Assembly: GCA_951406725.2 (NCBI GenBank) | Contig: OX597819.1 | Span: forward strand, 26,164,001 to 26,228,000 | Origin: Octopus vulgaris | Taxonomy: Eukaryota | Length of the DNA: 64,000 bases | Direction of reading: 5' to 3' | In this document: positions 1,399 through 56,770 of the stretch, piece by piece | Numbering within the stretch: position 1 is the first letter of the stretch | Layout: every line of letters starts with the position of its first letter | Notes under the pieces: model-generated | The model's input: the letters and a program-made list of their open reading frames with translations, nothing else | What the model was told of the DNA's origin: nothing | The model's database searches: none | Made by a program: the position numbers and the translations under genes

Positions 1399-3233
1399 TC
1401 TATTTGGTGCAATCCTATCTCCTTTTTGTTCTCAGCTAAATTCTAAATGTACAATGAATTTGTATAATATTAATCGTTATTAAGACACGTAACCTAGTTT
1501 CTAAGTGGCTGAGCACACGATCGTTAAATCAGGGGGCCTCGATTTCTCGACTGGGTGACTGCGTTTTTCCAGGAGCAAACTTCTTTATTTCACTTTGGTG
1601 CAGTATACCCTACTGAAAAAGAATACTATCAGTATCAGTTGGCCCCTTCTCCGGGGAGTCCGTGATTAACATAAATTAACATAAATCTCGATCTTATGAA
1701 CTTGTAAGCACGAAACAGACTGTATATCAACCCTTGCACTGCTTACTTTAATAAAACGGTGGGCTTCCTGAAGCATTGATAGATTATCAACAAACGTGAA
1801 TTGAACTATTTAAGTACCTCATCTTACATGGCCGACTTTGCCTTACATCACGAATGTTTCACTAGACTTGTAAATAAGTGTTGAGCTACATTTAATGAAA
1901 TATACTATCCTCTAAAATGTTTAAATTTATGGTAAAGCCAGAAATAAATCTTCTCTTAAGTAAGTTGGATCTAGATTGACAGAAACGTTTAGAGTATCTT
2001 ACTGGACTGGACGCATTTATGCATTAACTTCCAGTCTATCCGAAGTCAACGTAACGTTTCAGCCATCAGAAATCATTAACATAAGTATCAGTTTAATAGC
2101 AGTTTTGGTTTAATCGAATAACCCCTTTCGCAAATTTGGGAGACGTATAACTATTTTAGAAATCTGTATTATTTGCAGCATGCTATTCTAATAGTCGGAC
2201 TCCCAACATATGTCATTCTTCAGGAACGATTGACAAGAAAGTCATGAAATATTCTTTCTTACTCATAAAAGTCCTTGTATTTAGTTTTAGGTAAATGACC
2301 TGCAAGATGTTTACATTAAACTTCACTTATATAAAGATTAATGCTACAACTTGAAAGAAATGTTTTCGAAATTTTACAAAATGATCAACCTTAATAGCAC
2401 ATTTAGCTTGGGCTGAGTAGACTTTTGTATTAAAAGAAGAATGGAGTATTGTTAAAATTGCTTTCTTAATTGTTATAGCATACAAATCTATTGCGGATGG
2501 AAACAATTATTGTTCGAACAGCTTTCTGAGATGCCTGACCACTGCCCAACTCTCTATGACCTTTACATATTCTTCTTGGGTGTATCAAAGTTTATATGAA
2601 TATTATCCAAATTAATTTCGCACAACATATATGGTAGCGATATAGGAGAACAGTAAATCGTGATTTATTCATGTACATAACAATTCCATTGCTACGGAAA
2701 TTGTTTTCCATCAGCAATGTTTGACAAATTCTGGAATCATTTAGGGAGATTCTAATGGTTTGTTGTACACAAATACCCTGTCACTTGTAACGAGATTTAA
2801 CGATAAGGAAGATGTATATTGTGTCGTCGGGTAGCTTATTGGAGCATCCGCTTTTTTCTTAATCGAAATTTTCTGTACTTTCAGTTTTGTGTTTGTATTT
2901 TTTCTGCAGGGACCAGTTCATTTTATTGTGTAGCTCCAAAGAAGTCTGAGTGAGTAATCTTATTTTTTAAAGCTTTCTCGTTATGACAATTCTATACTTC
3001 TTTTGGATATTGTAAATCTGGTATTACATTTTCCAAAGTGGCACTCCTTATAATACGGTAGAGCGTAATTTGAAGATGACGCTGCCATTTTTTCACAGTT
3101 CGAGCGTCCATTTCGAAGAGTGTTTCTCAACCGTTTTTACCTATGGAACCCTTTCATTTCTATTTTAATCGGATGGACCCTCACAGCATTTAGATGTTTA
3201 AAAATTCCTGCATCACGAGATGCAGCACGGAGT

Positions 3234-3284
3234 TTAGTCAGTGAACAGGTCGCGGTCTCAAAGCGAGGAAAATATTTTAACAAA
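3234..3284 (+). ncRNA. Minimal hammerhead ribozyme motif, G3:C8 core variant (diverged copy)
   Basis: TTAGTCA-GTGAACA-GGTCGC..GCGAG-GAAA-ATAT-TT-TAACAAA. Lies in a repeat (about 3220-3360) whose second copy is at 42171-42300 on the minus strand. Confidence 0.6.
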
Positions 3285-4164
3285 TTAAATTTCAATGTTG
3301 AAGTGAATCTAACGGTTTTGTGTGTTTCTTAAATGGGTTATAAACACCTTCCACGCTGCAATTGTTTTCGTTCCAGCACACGATCTCAGATCAAGTCACT
3401 CGCTATGTTTTGTTTTTATTTACGATTCAATTACCTTTTAATTGCTTTTTATAATTAGTATATAATATTTCTAATTATAGTTTTATCAATATAATACCTT
3501 TATTTTACGGTTTTATATTAGCTTCTTCATAGCCATTCATTATTTTCCAAATCCCGTAAATGATCCTACTATCGTTTTCATCATTAAAGCCCTATCTATC
3601 CAAGTTCTTTTATCTATCTGAATTCTTCTGTCTCAATATAATATATTGCTCTCATACCATGGTAATGAATACACTTTTAATAATTGACTTTCCCTTTTTC
3701 ACCCTTTTTCTTTTATTCTCTCTATTCCTTTTCTTTTTCGTCCTTCTTCGTTATCGTTTAAGAAAATAAAGTCTGATTGTTTGGTTCTCATCAAAACTGT
3801 TCTAATAATTTAGTAGCTGCTATATACTCATAATTCATTGATCCTTACTCTTTTTTCCTTTGACATTGAAACTGTTGTTGAATTGTATCTTAGGTAAATC
3901 AAGCCATCTCTTTCTTTATTGTTGAAAGGAGTAACAATGGTTTTCCTTTACCCTTACAACTTGCTACGAAACTAAGTAACCCCTACTAAGGCTATAAATT
4001 CTAAAATATCCCCCTCCTGTTTTGTTCCCTCCCACTTGAATGCACATTGGCGTTTTTGGTTAAACTCATTCTACGGTAAGAGCAAGTTGCGGCATAAAAC
4101 GAAAAATATGTTCGTGCTGCGGATTTTGAATTATTTTAACTGCCTTTGATTGTAAGATTCATGT

Positions 4165-4252: not shown

Positions 4253-4992
4253 TGACACCTGTCCATCAATTGTTACTTACCTTTCTATTTATAAAATTCT
4301 TTGTCTCTTCTCTCTGTCTGTCTATTTCCTATGCATTCTGAAAGAGCTCAACCAAATCAAATGAAATTTTACAAGGTAATAGTATTAGACCCCGCGAGCG
4401 TCAACGTGTAATTTTATCTTCAATTGGATTAAAACAATATAGCATTTTATCTAACATAATCTTTCTATGGTCAACTATATAGTGAAGGACAATTTATACC
4501 ATGACTTCGACGACGATAACGTCACATTTTGTATATGAGTGTTTGTGTGCGTGTTTGCGCGTTTGTTACGTAAGTTAGGCCTCCGAGAATTAAACAGACG
4601 CATACATTTACACATACATGAAAACTGACAAGTATATATGTGTGTGTGTGTGTATGTGAGAGTGCTTGTTGGAGTGAGTATACATACATTTTTGTGACGT
4701 CTGACACACTGATACACACATATAAAGAGATACAGACACAAACAGAGGGAGCGAGATAGACCTTTATACAGTGAGATACAATTAAAGTATTAGATATTCA
4801 GAGAGAGAAAGAGAGAGGGAGGAAGAGAGATTGTGTGTGCGTGTGTCTTACCCTGAGGTGTGCGTGAACATGTGTCTGTTTTGGTACATGTATATAAGTG
4901 AATGTGAGAGTGTGTGTGAATGTATGTGACTGTTTGTGAGTGTATGTGTGTGATGTGCGTGTGTGTATGCGGTCAAATAGTACTTTCTCATA

Positions 4993-5882
4993 GATCTTAC
5001 GGATAAAGCATTTCCTAATTTATCTGTCAATTACACTGATGTAAGCTGGCTATGTGAAAGAGTCATATTGGTTCTAACTAATGAAATGGCTGATAAACTC
5101 AATCATGAATTTCTCCAAAACTTAATAGTTACATCAGAAATGACTTTTTGATCAATTCACACAACAGTCGATCAGAATCAGGCTGTTCATTTCTGAACAC
5201 ACTTAAACCCACTGGTATGCCACCGCATAATTTGACACTAGATCTGGGTGCTTCCATTATGTTTCTTAGTAATCTTGACGCACCTCGTCTGTGTAATGGA
5301 ACTAGCTTAATTGTTACTTCCATAAAGCCCATGTCTTGGAAGCGGCAATCATAGCAGATAGTCACAAAGGAGAAAATGTCTTCCTCTCGTACCTACAGAT
5401 GTTCCGTTTGAATTTAAGAGGCTTCAGTTTCCAGTGAAATTAAGTTTTGCCATTTCAATTAACAAATATTAGGGTCAGTCTCTCAAGGTAGTTGGACATG
5501 ATCTCTCTATTGCATGCTTATCTTAGGGTCAGCATTATGTTGCTTGCTCACGAGTTGGAAGTAGCAACAGTTTATTTATTTGGACACCAACAAAAAATTA
5601 CACAATGAATATATATATTTCTTTACTACACACAAGGGGCTAAACACAGAGGGGACAAACAAGGACAGACAAAGGGATTAAGTCGATTACATCGATCCCA
5701 GTGCGTAACTGGTACTTAATTTATCGACCCCGAAAGGATGAAAGGTAAAGTCGACCTCGGCGGAATTTGAACTCGGAACGCAACGACAGACGAAATACGG
5801 CCACGAATTTCGCCCGGCGTGCTAACGCTTCTGCCAGCTCGCCGCAATGAATATAGTTTATCCTGTGGTGCTTCAAGATTGA
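4993..5882 (+). pseudogene. Helitron PIF1-family helicase C-terminal remnant, interrupted by a SINE
   Basis: WLCERVILVLTNE, FLNTLKPTGMPPHNLTL, LDAPRLCNGT, FKRLQFPVKLSFAISINK, GQHYVACSRV, then NIVYP after the SINE. Contains stops and frameshifts. Confidence 0.9.
5617..5844 (-). mobile_element. Meta-domain tRNA-SINE with target-site duplication
   Basis: Reverse strand reads GGCGAGCTGGCAGAAGCGTTAGCAC..CCTTTCATCCTTTCGGGGTCGATAAATTAAGTACCAG. TSD CAATGAATATA at 5603 and 5845. Confidence 0.9.
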
Positions 5883-6079
5883 CAGATTTTCCGTTTTATA
5901 TTCTATTATCATTACAATTTGGATATTTTTGATGCAATATTGATGTTTTGAAATAATTATGAGAAACCAAATGCGTCTTCATATTCATTGTTTATTCATC
6001 TGAATAAGAACAGTAGTAACCCGGGCAACGCCGTATCATACAGTTAGTTTATATATATATATATATTTGTATGATTGTA

Positions 6080-6365
6080 TGGAGGCGCAATGACCCAGAC
6101 CGGGCGTTGTAGGAATTTTTTGAGCGAAAACACCTAAAAGCTTCACGAGGCTCCAGCAGGGGTTGGTAGCGAACCCTGGTGTACACATTCACCACAACTT
6201 TCTCTCACTCTTGCTTCCTTTTTCTATTGTACGTGTATTTCAAAGAGCCATCTTTATCACACGTGTCTGTGGGCTGCTCAGCCACTTGCACATTAATTTC
6301 ACGAGCAGGCTGTTCCGTTGATCGGATCAACTGGAACCCTCGTCGTGAGCGACGGAGTGCCACGA
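6080..6365 (+). mobile_element. OR-type SINE with a deletion in the tRNA head
   Basis: Colinear with 544-895. Confidence 0.8.
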
Positions 6366-6637
6366 CATGAGTGTATAAATGAATATATTTATTCATATGA
6401 ATGTATACGGCCATATGGAACTTGTTTTTAGATAGGAGGGGATATTAAAACCTGAGTGTTAGCGCGCATGTAATGAAAGTTATCGAAACATTGTAAATTT
6501 CTCCTTATATTTAGGTTAATATTGAAGTTTGAATCAAACATACCTGCATAAAACAAAATGCAAACCGTGAGTTCTCTGAGAAAATACCCTGCAATATCTG
6601 TAACTAGGAAGGCGTTAACTAAAATTTGTAACATATA

Positions 6638-7645
6638 CGAGGGGGTCCCCAAAAGATGCCGGAATTGTGCAATATTGTTTTATTCACTTGGTTTTAGATG
6701 TTTTCACAGTTATCTCCTTCAAAGTACTCTCTATTCGATGCAATGCATCTGCCCAGACACGTTTCCCACTGTTCGTTTGTTTCTTCACCTCTTCCACATA
6801 TCCGAAACGTTTTTTTCTTAAGAACTTTTTTCATTCGGGGAAAAAAGGGTCGCAAGGAACAAGATCGGGTGAATATGGGGTTGGGGTGTAAGCGGAGTCA
6901 CACATTCAGTTGTGACTGGTTTTGATCTTCCTTGAGCAAGCGAGGAAAAATTTTGCTGCAACTCTTTTCATTCGCAATTTCTCGCTCAAAATTCGTTGGC
7001 AGGTGCTCCAAGACACATCAAACTTATCAACATGTTCGACAATTGATCGGCGATGGTCTTCCAAGATCAGTTCATGTATTTTGAGATGTGTTTATTCATG
7101 AAGAGCGTTGAGGTCACCCTGAACGAGGCTGTTTTTCAAGCGACAAATGACCATTCTTATTTCTTATTTCTTTATTGCCCACAAGGGACTAAACATAGAG
7201 GGGACAAACAAGGACAGACAAAAGGATTAAGTCGATTATATCGACCCCAGTGCGTAACTGGTACTCATTTAATCGACCTCGAAAGGATGAAAGGCAAAGT
7301 CGACCTCGGCGGAATTTGAACTCAGAACGTAGTAGCAGACGAAATACCGCTAAGCCTTTCGCCCGTCGTGCTAACGTTTCTGCCTGCTCGCCACCAAATT
7401 GCCATTCTTGAAGCATTAAAGTCATTCGTAAACTTGTGTTTTGCGCATGGCAGATTCCTTGTAAGATGTTTGAAGCATGTCAACTGTATCGGCCGCCGCT
7501 GTACCCAGCACAAAACAGAATTTCATGGAAGCACGCTGTTTCTTCGTTTCTGCCATCGCAAAAATCGACGAAAAGGGGAGATCCATGAACTGCAATAGGC
7601 CCGTCCCTCACAACGCGTTTCCGGTTACTTTTGAGTACCTCATTG
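6638..7645 (-). mobile_element. Internally deleted mariner transposon
   Basis: TA-flanked imperfect TIRs (CAAAAG..CCGGAA). Minus strand encodes the HTH QRASMKFCFVLG..DTVDMLQTSYKESAMRKTQVYE and the motif PYSPDLVPCD. Confidence 0.85.
7159..7394 (-). mobile_element. Meta-domain SINE nested in the mariner element
   Basis: Same family as 5617-5844. TSD CAAATGACCATTCTT / CAAATTGCCATTCTT. Confidence 0.9.
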
Positions 7646-7872
7646 TATAGCAAAATATCAATTGCATTTCTTCATTATATTAAGAATTATTAATAAAAAA
7701 AAGTATTAGGAAATAGATAATTGGTCATCAAACCAGGTAAAATCTTCTAAAATTATTTTCTTTGTTCCCATTTCGGTAGGCAGATTCTAGAAAAAGATTA
7801 ATCAGATTTATTTTGTAATGCCATTCTCTGTATAACCAAGAAATGTAATCTTTCTTATGTCATTCTTGACAG

Positions 7873-8645: not shown

Positions 8646-8814
8646 AAAGATAAGCTACTCGAGGTTCAGCTATGAAAGAATTAGTGGCAATATTTTACCA
8701 GCGTTTTTGTTTTTATAATTCATTTCTGATGAGGGATTATCGTTAAGTATCACTATTCAAGTGGCTTCAACACTGCATATATCTTATAATTCATCTTATA
8801 AAAAAAGAAAACTA

Positions 8815-13619: not shown

Positions 13620-14200
13620 TTAGGGCAACTCGAGAAAGACGAACCCATGAATGGAACACAATACCATTTCTAGTATCACACATGTATCACCAAAACATTT
13701 TTTAACATCATCAAAACAAATTTGCCATTTATGAAACAAAGGGACAAATTAACAAAGACAAACTTCAACATGTCAAACAGGATAAAACATTCACAGTATC
13801 CAAATGTAATGATAACAGATGTGAAACGTGTAAATACATGCATACTGGTAGATCCATTAGAACAAAAAATGGACAGATTTTTCACAAATGCAGATATGAA
13901 ATGCAAAAGCAGAAATTTGATATGCTGCATTAAATGCCCTAATGGCGAGGAACTATATACATTGGCAAAACAGGGAATGGATTATCGGAACGCTCACGTG
14001 TTCACAGACAACAAATCCGTAACACTGTTGTTCTCCAAATTCCATTGCGCGAAGATATAGAACCATGTAATAAAAAGATGGTTCTAATTTTTCTTTTCCA
14101 CACACGCCATAACACAAAGGAGATTGGAAGGCAGATAAAAAAAAGACTTTCATTAAAATTTTCAAAACTGTAGTGAACGGAAGTAACAACAAGAATATAA
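13620..14200 (+). pseudogene. Penelope-like GIY-YIG endonuclease remnant
   Basis: DMKCKSRNLICCIKCPNGEELY, then after a frameshift YIGKTG..LSERSRVHRQQI, preceded by a Cys-containing linker. Confidence 0.75.
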
Positions 14201-18567: not shown

Positions 18568-18825
18568 GTTTTATATTTAAATGAGGAATCATGTACATTG
18601 TTTACATTATTTACAATTAACGGATATTTGTCCTCATCCTGTTTGTTGTTAACACAAAGTTTCGGCTGATGTACCCTCAAGCCTTCATCAGGTGTATTGG
18701 GTAAATTTCGAACGGGGTTCTCATTCCTAAGGTATGTTTTGATGTTGTGGTTGTTATTCAGATCATTGCCTGGAATCAAACTCGGAATCTTGGGGTTAGT
18801 AGACCGCGATCTTAACCATATGCCC
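18568..18825 (-). mobile_element. tRNA-headed, hammerhead-bearing short retroelement, copy A
   Basis: Reverse strand reads GGGCATATGGTTAAGATCGCGGTCTACTAACCCCAAGATTCCGAGTTTGATTCC, then an AAC/AAT spacer and an HHR. Confidence 0.8.
18652..18695 (-). ncRNA. Minimal hammerhead ribozyme motif
   Basis: Reverse strand reads ACAC-CTGATGA-AGGCT-TGAGGGTACATC-AGCC-GAAAC-TTT-GTGT. Confidence 0.75.
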
Positions 18826-34852: not shown

Positions 34853-34970
34853 CATATATATATACACATATACACATATATATACATATACATACATATA
34901 TATATATACCCGCACCTACACATGCACACATATATACATATATACATACATATACACACATACACACACA

Positions 34971-35070
34971 NNNNNNNNNNNNNNNNNNNNNNNNNNNNNN
35001 NNNNNNNNNNNNNNNNNNNNNNNNNNNNNNNNNNNNNNNNNNNNNNNNNNNNNNNNNNNNNNNNNNNNNN
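34971..35070. other. Assembly gap (100 N)
   Basis: Run of n characters. Confidence 1.
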
Positions 35071-42038: not shown

Positions 42039-42240
42039 GTATATGTATATATATGTATATGTATGTATATGTATATGTATGTGTATATGTATGTATATAT
42101 ATGTATAGGTATATTTATGTATATGTATATATATATGTATATGTATATATATATATATGAATATATATGTGCAGCGTGGAAGGTGTTTGTAAGCCATTTA
42201 AGAAACACACAAAAGCCGTTCGATTCACTTCAACATTTAA

Positions 42241-42291
42241 TTTGTCAAAATATTTTCGTCGCTATAAGACCGCAACCTGTTCACTGACAAA
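42241..42291 (-). ncRNA. Minimal hammerhead motif, G3:C8 core variant
   Basis: Reverse strand reads TTTGTCA-GTGAACA-G-GTTGC-GGTCTTATA-GCGAC-GAAA-ATAT-TT-TGACAAA, with a 7-bp stem I and 5-bp stem II. Confidence 0.72.
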
Positions 42292-43814
42292 AATCCGTGA
42301 TGCAGCACAGGTTGTTCATTATCCTTAAACAACCATTCTTCAGAGACATTTTGAGGAATGTGAAGAAAACTTTAATTGGGCCCTGCCTGCAAGCTTATGC
42401 ACTGTTAACCTTCATATAAGGTCATCATGTCGTACACATATCGTTGTGAAGCATGTGACTAGAGTACCTTTATCAGAGGTGTAGTCGTGATGGGTAGATT
42501 GGGCTTCGTATATGCGTACTCCATTGTCACTTTGATGGCGTGTGCACTCTATTTTTGGCACAGGGCCTGTACTGTCGGGGAAGAGGGAAAGGTCGATTAC
42601 ATCGACTCCAGTGATCAAGTGATACTTATTTTATCAACTCCTTAAGGACGAAATGCCATTAATCATTTTGCCCGGCGTGCTAGCAATTCGGCTAATTTGC
42701 CGTTTTTGATATATCTAATATTACTCGTTTGTATTACTTAAATCTATTGTATCATTGAAATTATGTATTTGGACATATCGGCATTTTCGGATGCTGTTGT
42801 AGTTACTAGTGCCTTTTATTTTATGTCAAGATATATTACACAAAACAAAATTTAGTTAATATCGGCCACATCCACGTAGAATCTTACAAATGACACGGTT
42901 ATAAAAATGTGTTCATAGTCACGGGCATTACTGAGTCGATATGTAGTCAATATTTCTTCTTGAAATAGCAGTCAAAGCTCTCTCAAGTCTGATTGCATTA
43001 CCGCTAAAACAAAGCAGTGCATAATTTATCCTGCAGTTGACTACGACTGAAAAAGTCAGAATACTCATGGACAGAATACATCTGATCGTAAGTCAGCTCG
43101 TCCATAGTTAATAAAGAGTCAATCAGGAATAGTTATACAGTAACCGGATTAACCATAAGATGTTTAACGCTGTTGTACGCACAACATTTTTCAAACCAAG
43201 ACTAAATTCGTGAGGAAGGAAACTTCTCTAGTTTTCAGTTATCATTGTTAGACCAAAGTTTTCAACTGGCATGGAAATTTTTGCCAACGGACATAGAATT
43301 TGGCTTGGATTCTAATAGCATTTAGCAGCTAGTGTCCAACAATTTATTTAATGTTCAACTTAGCATTGAAATAGGCACCAACACCAGGTGGTTATCTTTC
43401 GCAATCAATAGAGAATGTACAATAGTAATATACGCGTTGTAAATAGCTAATGGGTAACAAAAGCAATGGAAGCATAATGCAGAAATATTATGGAACGCTT
43501 CGAATCATCTTCGTATAGAACATGGTCCGTTTATTCGCAGTTAAGTATGTGGCTGCAGCTGAAATTCATTGCATTCAACAAGTTGTCACTGGTGTTCACA
43601 TTTTTATCTAGATCAATGTCTCTTAATGTTCTTTATTAATATACGATTTCACTAGACAATCGAAAACTTGGTACAAGAGTATACTTTTGTTTTGTTTTTT
43701 TTCTTTTTTGCTTTGTTTTAAAATAACGATCACCACGTGGAATAAAAAAATTAAGGAATAAAAAAAGTAACGGTTGAATATAAGACGAAGTCAGTGATTA
43801 TCTCAACGCGGTTC

Positions 43815-48389: not shown

Positions 48390-49480
48390 ATATCAACGTT
48401 CGGTTTCTTCATTTTATAGATTAGATTTATATTAGTGCAGATCTATATTTAAGAACAAGTAAAAAAAAAAAACGCACTAGAATACCAATAAGAAACTTGG
48501 TGGAAATGTTGACCTTCTGTGTAGAAACTACCTACTTCAGTATGAACACTGATATATATCGACATATAATGGGTTCACCATTATCACCGATAATAGCCAA
48601 TATATATATACATGGAATACTTTGAGAATTTGGCTTTAGGATCAAAAACTTCTAAAACCAACCCTATAGCTGCGATATGCTGAGGACACCTTCATACTCT
48701 GTCTCCCACAGGAAGATGTCCAAGTGCTGTTAGATCATGTGAACTTCATAAAGCCATCCGTACTGTTCACAATAGAAAAAGAAAAAGACTATCAGCTAGG
48801 ATTCCTGGACGTATTAATAACACGCACCAAGTATGGATTCAGGACATCCGTATACCGAAAGCCAACCTTCACCAGACGATACCTCAATTTAAACTCCCAC
48901 CATCGATAAAGAGAAGGATTGGTCAGTGCCTAAAACATCGTTCAATGAATATGAGAAGCGATCGTGATATCCACCACGAAGAAATGATCAAGATCCGTAA
49001 CAATCTATTAAGCAACAACTACTCCAAAAGCATACTCTCCACTCCAATTATGAAGAAAAGGCCTCTATGTGAAAGGCCTCTCCTGAAAAGATATGAATGA
49101 TATGCGACCCATATGACATCAGGGTAATATTAAAAAGTAATACAACACTTCGCAAATATCTCCGAGTAAAACCACCAATAGAAGAGAATATGACTAAGAA
49201 CTGCGTGTACTCCATCCCGTGCAGCTCTTGCAGGTTATACAAAGGCGAAACATGCCACCCTCTCAAAATAAGGGTAGAGGAACACTGCAAAGCTGTAACA
49301 CGAGGCGATATTGATAAATCAGGTATACCTGATCATGTATGGAAAAATGGAAACCTCCCCTGTGAGATGAAGTTTAGATAATAGACAGAGAACACCACGG
49401 GAAAATACGAAAACTAAAAGAAGCAGCACATATGTTAGGACACAACAACCTCCTAAGCAGACCGAGTGCAGATATGAAGG
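48390..49480 (+). pseudogene. Penelope-like RT plus GIY-YIG endonuclease, disrupted
   Basis: MGSPLSPIIANIY, LRYAEDTF (YxDD site), FTIEKEKDYQLGFLDVLI, SVYRKPT..YLNLNSHH and VYSIPCSSCRLYKGET..LKIRVEEH. Confidence 0.92.
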
Positions 49481-54899: not shown

Positions 54900-56770
54900 T
54901 AATATCCAAGAAAGGGAGATGCTCTTTGCTATATTCCATTGTAGGGTTTATATTGATTAGTTTTGATTTAAATACTAAAAGTTTATTAATGGTCTCATTC
55001 CAAATGATAAAGCACTCATCCAGATATCTTTTCGAAGTTATCTCTTATATAATGTTGAAATGGATGTCTATATTTTTGCAGTGACACTTCATATATGGTG
55101 AATTCAAAATATCTCCTAATTAGATTCGCAAGAATAAGGGCTGCTTTCGTTCCTATCGCAATTCCGCATTCTTGACGATAGTAGGTGTCATCAAATAGAA
55201 GGTAATTGTTCTGAAGAATAAATTTTAATGTTTCAATAATAAAAAAAACCTGGTTTCTACATCCCGGAAAATATTTAGGGTACTTTTCCAGCCATAGTTT
55301 TATTGCTTCTATTCCATAGTCATGTGGGATATTGATGTTAAGATTAATTACATCAAAGGAAACTAATAATATCACTTCATTAGTTGTTTTTGTAGATCGT
55401 CCGTGATGAAAATTTTGATGTATTTCAGCAAGGGTGTCAGTAGGATGTGTAGGAAATTGTTTAGGCGGTGGGTTTTACAGGTTGGGCTAGCTATAATGGA
55501 TCTTAACTTTAAATCTTCTGGTGCTTGGATATTTATGTATTTGCCTGGTGATTGTTTGCCGGCTTCATTAACTATCTTGATCTTATGTATTTTAGATAGA
55601 CCGTAAAAATGATTGTGCTTACGAACATTTAAAGTTCGTGATATAATCTTTATTGTGATACATTTATTTTTCTGTCAGGCCTTTTCATGTAGATGAATTA
55701 AATAGGCAAGGCTTTTCATTGTTTGTTGTTGTTTATAGTTAAACAACTTTTACGTGGAAGGTATCGTTCTCTAGCATAGATAAGAAGAAGAAGAAGAGGT
55801 GTTTCCTTCGCGAGATATGCCAGGCTCATAAGGGCCGGTTTCCTGGTTTCAGTGGCGTAGAAATTCCCCACCAGGACTGGACGCCGATCCGTCGCAAGAT
55901 TACACATTTTTGCCAGCTGAGTGGACTGGAGCAACGTGAAAGGAAGTGTTTTGTTCAAGAACACAACGCATCGCCCGATCCAGGAATTGAAACCACGATC
56001 TTACGATCATGAGTTCAACACCCTAACCACTAAGCCACACGCCTGGACCTAGCAAGGATAATACTAGGTTTTTGTAGTGTTCTGTGTCCATCAGGACTAC
56101 AGCACTTCCTTTGTCTGCGTCTTTCAATTGTTTGTTCTTTGTCGTTTTATATTTCAATTAGATTTTTCTATTTTAAATTGTTGAAGATTGAATAAATCTT
56201 TCGCTTATGGAAACTGATTAGGGAAATTTTGGATATGGCCGCAGAAGTCATCTAGGGTTTTATTCCTACCCTTAGGTGGGAGATAATTGCTTCTGTTTTT
56301 AACCAGTGATTCATCGTTGTTGTAGTCAGTTAGTGCTTCTGTAAGTTGTAGTTTCCTGCAGAATTCCGAAATATTGTCTTTAATTTCATTCTGGTTAGAT
56401 CTTCCTGGGGTAAATCTTAATCGTTTAGCTAGTATAGTGATTTTTGCTGCAGAGAGAGAGTTTTCTTTGATAAATTAATTACTTTGTGTTTCTCCAGTTC
56501 CAATGACTGTCTCTGTTTCTCTCCACTCCGTCTAAAAATGGTTGACTGTAATTTGGTTAGAAGATGATATCAATGTTATTAATTGTATTAAGGTTTCATG
56601 GAGGCTGGTTTTGTTGTCTGGGTAAATTGGGTAAATTTCGTCTCACTAATTTAGCTTTTGAGTCTTCGTATATTTATTTATTCCCTCCCCTTAGATATTT
56701 CTGTCTGTTCATTCACTTCATGCACAAACTCCCGTACACAACATGGACTAAATTCTTAAGAAAATACGAA
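54900..56770 (-). pseudogene. Second Penelope-like RT remnant
   Basis: INLSKKTLS..LRFTP, FYGLSKIHK, LVSFDVINLNINIPHDYGIEAI and FILQNNYLLFDDTYYRQECGIAIGT. The upstream boundary is approximate. Confidence 0.85.
55784..56043 (-). mobile_element. CORE-type tRNA-SINE nested in the PLE
   Basis: Reverse strand reads GGCGTGTGGCTTAGTGGTTAGGGTG..GTTGTGTTCTTGAACAAAACAC..(CTT)n. TSD CTAGCATAGATAA / CTAGCAAGGATAA. Confidence 0.88.

Follow-up and report, generated by a model that had tools for sequence, protein, structure and literature searches.

A natural G3-C8 core pair in a minimal type I hammerhead motif of an octopus Penelope-like element

Hammerhead ribozymes are recognized by the core CUGANGA, in which nucleotides 3 and 8 are C3 and G8. 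A motif in Octopus vulgaris reads GUGAACA instead, with G3 facing C8. Pair 3-8 is specific to the active hammerhead conformation, as seen in the full-length crystal structure. The locus raises the question whether such a swapped core represents decay or a compensatory change shared by a family, and whether RNA carrying it could still cleave itself. The window analysed here is a stretch of 64,000 nucleotides (contig OX597819.1, positions 26,164,001 to 26,228,000) with one copy of the motif on each strand.

The motif and its second copy

The motif has the three-way layout of a minimal type I hammerhead, with stems I and II and the order stem I - core - stem II - GAAA - NUH - stem I. The features in the window are:

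42241..42291, minus strand: G3-C8 minimal type I hammerhead motif, from sequence, fold and descriptor scan
42291-42285 with 42247-42241, minus strand: stem I, 7 bp, Watson-Crick
42284-42278, minus strand: core GUGAACA (G3 at 42284, C8 at 42279)
42277, minus strand: extra G after A9
42276-42272 with 42262-42258, minus strand: stem II, 5 bp, one U-G wobble
42257-42255, minus strand: GAA
42254-42249, minus strand: palindromic stem III half AAUAUU
42248, minus strand: U17, triplet UUU; predicted cut between 42248 and 42247
42170..42308, minus strand: pseudo-LTR copy, short arm, 94% to the family over 145 bases and with the family anatomy
3234..3284, plus strand: second motif copy, decayed, G3 at 3241
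3219..3407, plus strand: pseudo-LTR copy of an older subfamily with most of the 3' tail present, 91% to the family over 190 bases

The preliminary description had identified the core, the 3-8 pair, the 7-bp stem I, the 5-bp stem II and the palindromic AAUAUU correctly, but missed the extra G at 42277. It also expected searches for the canonical core to overlook the motif, which they do. The literal consensus with C3 and G8 is absent, and Rfam finds no hammerhead at E 10 in 161 local bases. The motif is thus filed as a variant and not as a canonical member of the class. The Rfam scan of the window likewise contains no hammerhead, with only microsatellite-driven miRNA matches among the best 150 of 224 listed. 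Positions U4, G5, A6, A9, G12, A13, A14, A15.1-U16.1, G10.1-C11.1 and H17 hold the majority state in 92-99% of the copies. The stem III palindrome is present and conserved, with a duplex predicted at just about -0.2 kcal/mol compared to -8.3 for the ACCGGU of other families. The motif is real and well supported as a hammerhead fold under selection, with self-cleavage as a prediction.

Both window copies are dead-on-arrival, truncated and inert insertions, and selection acts only on the master elements. The copy at 42170..42308 has a (TA)n end, carries the remnant of a fold-back 5' and lacks 6 bases 3' of the hammerhead, and its U-G wobble in stem II is C-G in the family majority. In the copy with G3 at 3241, private changes break G10.1-C11.1 and two stem I pairs, and the predicted probability of stem I is 0.0. 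A 19-mer from the core region matches the window twice at up to three mismatches, against 0.00 expected from 100 shuffles. The shared core had initially been read as a family trait instead of decay. The trait is borne out by G3 with C8 in 154 of 169 copies, the remainder being scattered single changes or truncations, but the copy at 3241 is itself decayed. At 18691 (minus strand) and 18988 (plus strand), the window also contains a head-to-head pair from another pseudo-LTR family, both of them canonical C3-G8 minimal hammerheads with a triplet ending in U. An assembly gap of N lies in the region 34969-35070.

The carrier element

The motif is far more abundant than the two copies initially described. 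The genome contains 5,925 exact matches to a 22-base word covering stem I, core and stem II, compared to 0 for the control. Seven insertions in 80 evenly spaced 10-kb stretches extrapolate to ~24,000 genome-wide (2.8 Gb; Poisson range about 10,000-50,000). Copies are ~150 or 205 bases long, their (TA)n end falls at either of two fixed points ~55 bases apart, and a truncated inverted arm often faces them head to head. A search started from a distant copy returned mostly another repeat. An upstream-extension pattern is found at 490 places in the genome, and 12 fetched regions yielded a long element. In one of these (L301), the motif at 4538 is followed by an ORF at 5362-7692, frameshifted close to its end, and by the motif again at 8799, which defines a unit of 4,261 bases. 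The motif lies ~950 bases behind the RT/GIY-YIG ORF and is part of both terminal repeats of the unit.

The ORFs of the element encode 646-777 aa with YVDD and YIGET motifs and a CX3CX2C linker. The protein itself has no Pfam match at E 0.01. It aligns at a BLASTP E of 1e-9 with the protein of a genome neighbour (L092), which hits RVT_1 and, below cut-off, GIY-YIG, and it has 157 homologues; homologues carry the label of an RT domain. A single ORF with telomerase-like RT and C-terminal GIY-YIG is accompanied by pseudo-LTRs in partial tandems, an inverted truncated arm, an optional tail and a (TA)n target, an anatomy that matches descriptions of endonuclease-bearing Penelope-like elements (PMC8557442, PMC11167929). 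As judged from these features, the carrier is an endonuclease-bearing Penelope-like element. The ORF-bearing subfamily is young, with a median of 1 difference in 250 bases among 14 ORF 3' ends, some pairs of which differ by ~70, probably from indels. The G3-C8 swap is present in the youngest autonomous subfamily. The identity as a non-LTR retrozyme was rejected, as the fetched copies are dispersed or part of an ORF-bearing element and not non-coding head-to-tail tandems.

Several further observations concern the element and other repeats in this genome. Among 73 copies, 43 have starts that cluster to within a few bases, 13 bases ahead of stem I (L121; L301 4497-4523; family-wide), while 4 have an upstream extension and 26 are shortened further. 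In the long element, a branch-point-like CTAAC, a pyrimidine tract and an AG directly precede this shared start. Random truncation would hardly be expected to leave so constant a 5' end, which may stem from splicing or an RT stop. No GT-AG joint at the acceptor-like site occurs among the matches listed, in assembled contigs of runs guessed to be RNA. The motif and portions of the ORF are covered by these contigs, a type of data that reveals neither ends nor strand nor expression. In the window, degraded pieces of other Penelope-like RT and GIY-YIG ORFs are located at 13674-14060 (plus strand), 48684-49100 (plus strand) and 55016-55674 (minus strand). A tandem retrozyme-like array with a period of 353-359 bases and a canonical type I hammerhead is found at L111 3083-4513 and on the opposite strand, and L028 contains two type I hammerheads with a U3-A8 core, which are retrozyme-like and spaced by 370 bases.

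Conservation of the 3-8 pair

Evidence for selection is stronger between families than within the family. Within the family, changes in at least 10% of copies were taken as reflecting master elements. At this subfamily level, changes affect 0/18 core positions, 1/24 stem positions, 4/8 positions of loop II and 15/154 flank positions, or 19/162 for loop and flanks combined. The single stem change is A-to-G and keeps a U-G wobble. The contrast yields p 0.12 for the core alone and p 0.053 for core and stems, reaching p 0.0099 only without counting the wobble change, in a copy sample that is biased toward the queries used and in which inverted arms are not independent. Conservation of the core within the family is suggestive only.

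Private mutations follow a different logic. Among the 73 copies, which were found without a motif reference, their rates are 3.0% in the core, 3.9% in the stems and 3.8% in the flanks. The core is intact in 42 of these copies, and core and flank decay are similar (p 0.26). The preliminary description had proposed that a core varying as freely as its flanks would count against the motif. This check was mis-set, because dead copies decay evenly. Core-versus-flank decay misfires as a test of function for this reason and was dropped.

Comparisons between families carry more weight. The nearest element (P0001) has 57% protein identity and is placed as sister with an SH-aLRT of 100 in a quick tree. 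Its hammerhead sits at the homologous place with C3-G8, C at position 9, the same extra G and U17. The stems differ in sequence from those of the G3-C8 family, with pairing kept in stems I and II. Related ORFs at 11 metagenome loci come with four hammerheads, of which L343 and L345 have C3-G8, and L344 and L347 have U3-A8. The other 7 loci have no usable hammerhead, owing to short or missing 3' ends and one degenerate case. The octopus genome also contains more distant sister families, with U3-A8 in one (L092 group) and A3-U8 in the other (L099 group). A scan of 1.9 Mb with a descriptor left free at positions 3 and 8 recovered 8 multi-copy clusters, in each of which the majority state is Watson-Crick, and 18 single matches, 10 of which lack 3-8 pairing. 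The family count retained 3 singles tied to ORFs and left out the other 15 as neither repeated nor ORF-tied (10 non-pairing, 5 pairing).

Pair 3-8 is Watson-Crick in all 13 families thus compared, as C-G in six, U-A in five, G-C in one and A-U in one. Pairing in 13/13 was reached by 27 of 2,000,000 shuffles, which is not a true p since the families are related. The L092 family and the family upstream of L093 came from a pair-conditioned scan or were found by eye; without these two, 11/11 families pair (by hand, 6!3!/11! = 1e-4). Universal pairing among the compared families suggests that the tertiary pair of the active fold is under selection. The sequences require at least three double changes among families, two of which are transversion swaps. 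These two swaps would be separate events, as the U3-A8 and A3-U8 families are sisters. Since the sister element, L343 and L345 all have C3-G8, the G3-C8 pair is most simply a derived state on a tree that is unrooted and unresolved at these forks. The swap looks like a compensatory family trait.

Individual relatives show further peculiarities. The A3-U8 family (L034, L038-L040, L049, L055, L099, L103) is Penelope-like, with a GUC triplet and ACCGGU as stem III. A young element with a 753-aa ORF and a U3-A8 core (L092-L098, L104-L106, L109, L110) shows either an additional A or an alternative G17 register in the stem III region. In the sister element (L313-L342), which has an ORF of up to 1,312 aa and many near-identical copies, the conserved A9 is replaced by C and followed by G, and the same is seen in the metagenome relative L344. 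The hammerhead at about 4970-5015 of L343, behind a related ORF, carries an inversion to U15.1-A16.1.

Folding, cleavage and known systems

The 51-mer at 42241-42291 is predicted to fold into stems I and II with a z of -1.98, and 9 of 200 shuffles are as stable. In contexts of 86 and 118 nt, the window copy prefers a rival hairpin because of its 6-base deletion, and the probability of stem I drops to 0.03. Undamaged copies from the five larger subfamily groups have median probabilities of 0.84-0.99 for stem I and 0.93-1.0 for stem II. The predicted dimer (-23.0) gains no stability over two monomers (2 x -11.7). G3 is furthermore predicted to pair with U17 as a wobble, which lengthens stem I. 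This resembles the inhibitory C3-G17 trap discussed in PMC3884650, where a G3-C8 variant is stated to work better with G17 than C17 (data not shown). Such a preference is in line with a 3-17 trap, of which U17 would avoid the Watson-Crick form. U17 is common to relatives and older than the swap.

We assign a probability of about 60% to the reading that the minimal type I G3-C8 motif, in the pseudo-LTR of a recently amplified Penelope-like element, still self-cleaves weakly, as a dimer and probably helped by protein. RNA transcribed across two successive pseudo-LTRs would contain two motifs, whose AAUAUU halves could pair to form stem III by analogy with described elements (PMC4209133). Cleavage after U17 would then be carried out by G12 and the 2'-OH of nucleotide 8, which is kept in position by the pair that G3 restores. 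Such cleavage might free unit-length RNA from tandem or host read-through transcripts. An engineered C3G/G8C exchange partly restores cleavage in the Penelope-type hammerhead of the anole Poseidon element, which cuts only with bound protein (PMC11167929). The very weak stem III, the UUU site and the predicted G3-U17 wobble all speak against strong activity, and C at position 9 in the sister and L344 motifs is a sign of a loosened core. Cleavage is expected to be weak and assisted, given the weak stem III, the dimer without gain over monomers, the G3-U17 pairing and the protein need of the anole hammerhead.

The main rival to weak cleavage is that the fold, including pair 3-8, is kept as a structural handle for protein binding, RNP assembly or 3'-end processing, with little or no cutting. 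The weak stem III, the G3-U17 wobble, the UUU triplet, the extra G and C9 in two relatives would all suit such a role. In the anole element, hammerhead mutants are without effect on insertion in vitro, making cleavage dispensable there, and RNA-seq ends at the cut site are absent from the data described (PMC11167929); minimal motifs generally have low in vitro activity (PMC4209133). We consider a mere handle unlikely, as G12, A13, A14, A15.1-U16.1, U4, G5 and A6 are all kept across subfamilies. Pair 3-8 also belongs to the active conformation in particular. Rescue by the C3/G8 swap is moreover stated in a review (PMC8495972).

A loss of function in the family ancestor, with two core changes as neutral hitch-hikers that pair by luck, is less probable still. 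In its favour, the pseudo-LTR is conserved overall, given the few changes at non-core and non-stem positions, and core conservation alone is not significant. Yet both transversions would have had to strike precisely the two paired positions and spare the remaining core, stems I, II and III have diverged from the sister with pairing kept, and a like swap separates the U-A and A-U sister families. Chance hammerhead likeness in a repeat could be argued from the missing Rfam match and from the 10 isolated non-pairing matches of the loose descriptor. It is refuted by canonical hammerheads at the homologous position in the sister, L343 and L345, and the pseudo-LTR is the described site of such motifs (PMC4209133), which leaves coincidence with hardly any credibility.

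The findings can be joined into a broader reading, to which we give slightly better than even odds. Penelope-like elements would use all four Watson-Crick 3-8 pairs, having exchanged purine and pyrimidine independently at least twice (C-G to G-C and U-A to A-U), the G3-C8 form would be active with protein assistance in a currently amplifying element, and whole ribozyme classes would be missed by CUGANGA searches. Search descriptors should permit any 3-8 pair. The comparison adds phylogenetic evidence of selection, in Penelope hammerheads, on the tertiary pair that marks the active fold, and bears on the debate whether hammerheads are useful to the element or merely ride along. One genome with all four 3-8 pairs on young elements provides a ready test set. 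A catalogue by Lunse et al. 2017 reportedly covers many Penelope-linked hammerhead variants and may list G3-C8; the literature searched yielded no natural hammerhead with G3-C8 or A3-U8, and novelty is provisional. Natural U3-A8 is already known.

Among known elements, the Neptune/Nematis type (PMC8557442) shares the C-terminal GIY-YIG, the CX2-5CxxC linker, (TA)n targets, the inverted 5'-truncated arm and the optional tail. The octopus element differs by a long insertion between RT motifs A and B, by its lack of a Pfam match at E 0.01 and by a tail of ~55 bases. The tree of element proteins holds no named reference proteins, and the octopus element, with its CX2-5CxxC linker, is a candidate for the Neptune or Nematis clade. 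The metazoan Penelope hammerheads of Cervera and de la Pena 2014 (PMC4209133) are likewise type I motifs in pseudo-LTRs, with an extra nucleotide after A9, G10.1-C11.1, a palindromic stem III needing a dimer, a common U17 and an AU-rich 3' flank. The 56 motifs in Fig. S3 of that study comprise 53 C3-G8 and 3 U3-A8, with 0 G3-C8 and 0 A3-U8, and an extra G occurs in 1/56. The UUU triplet, initially called unusual, is indeed found in only 1/56 (oyster), but U17 itself is common (24/56). Natural U3-A8 covariants (Perreault et al. 2011, PMC3088659; PMC4209133) are also compensated exchanges of the 3-8 pair. They represent a double transition with wobble intermediates, whereas the octopus G3-C8 is a double transversion with purine and pyrimidine swapped. 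The engineered C3G/G8C hammerhead (PMC11167929, PMC8495972) has the same core in the same element class and is partly rescued. The octopus form differs in that it is natural, has become fixed in an amplifying family and occurs together with U17 and the extra G, so that a laboratory rescue mutant is found here as a natural, fixed allele.
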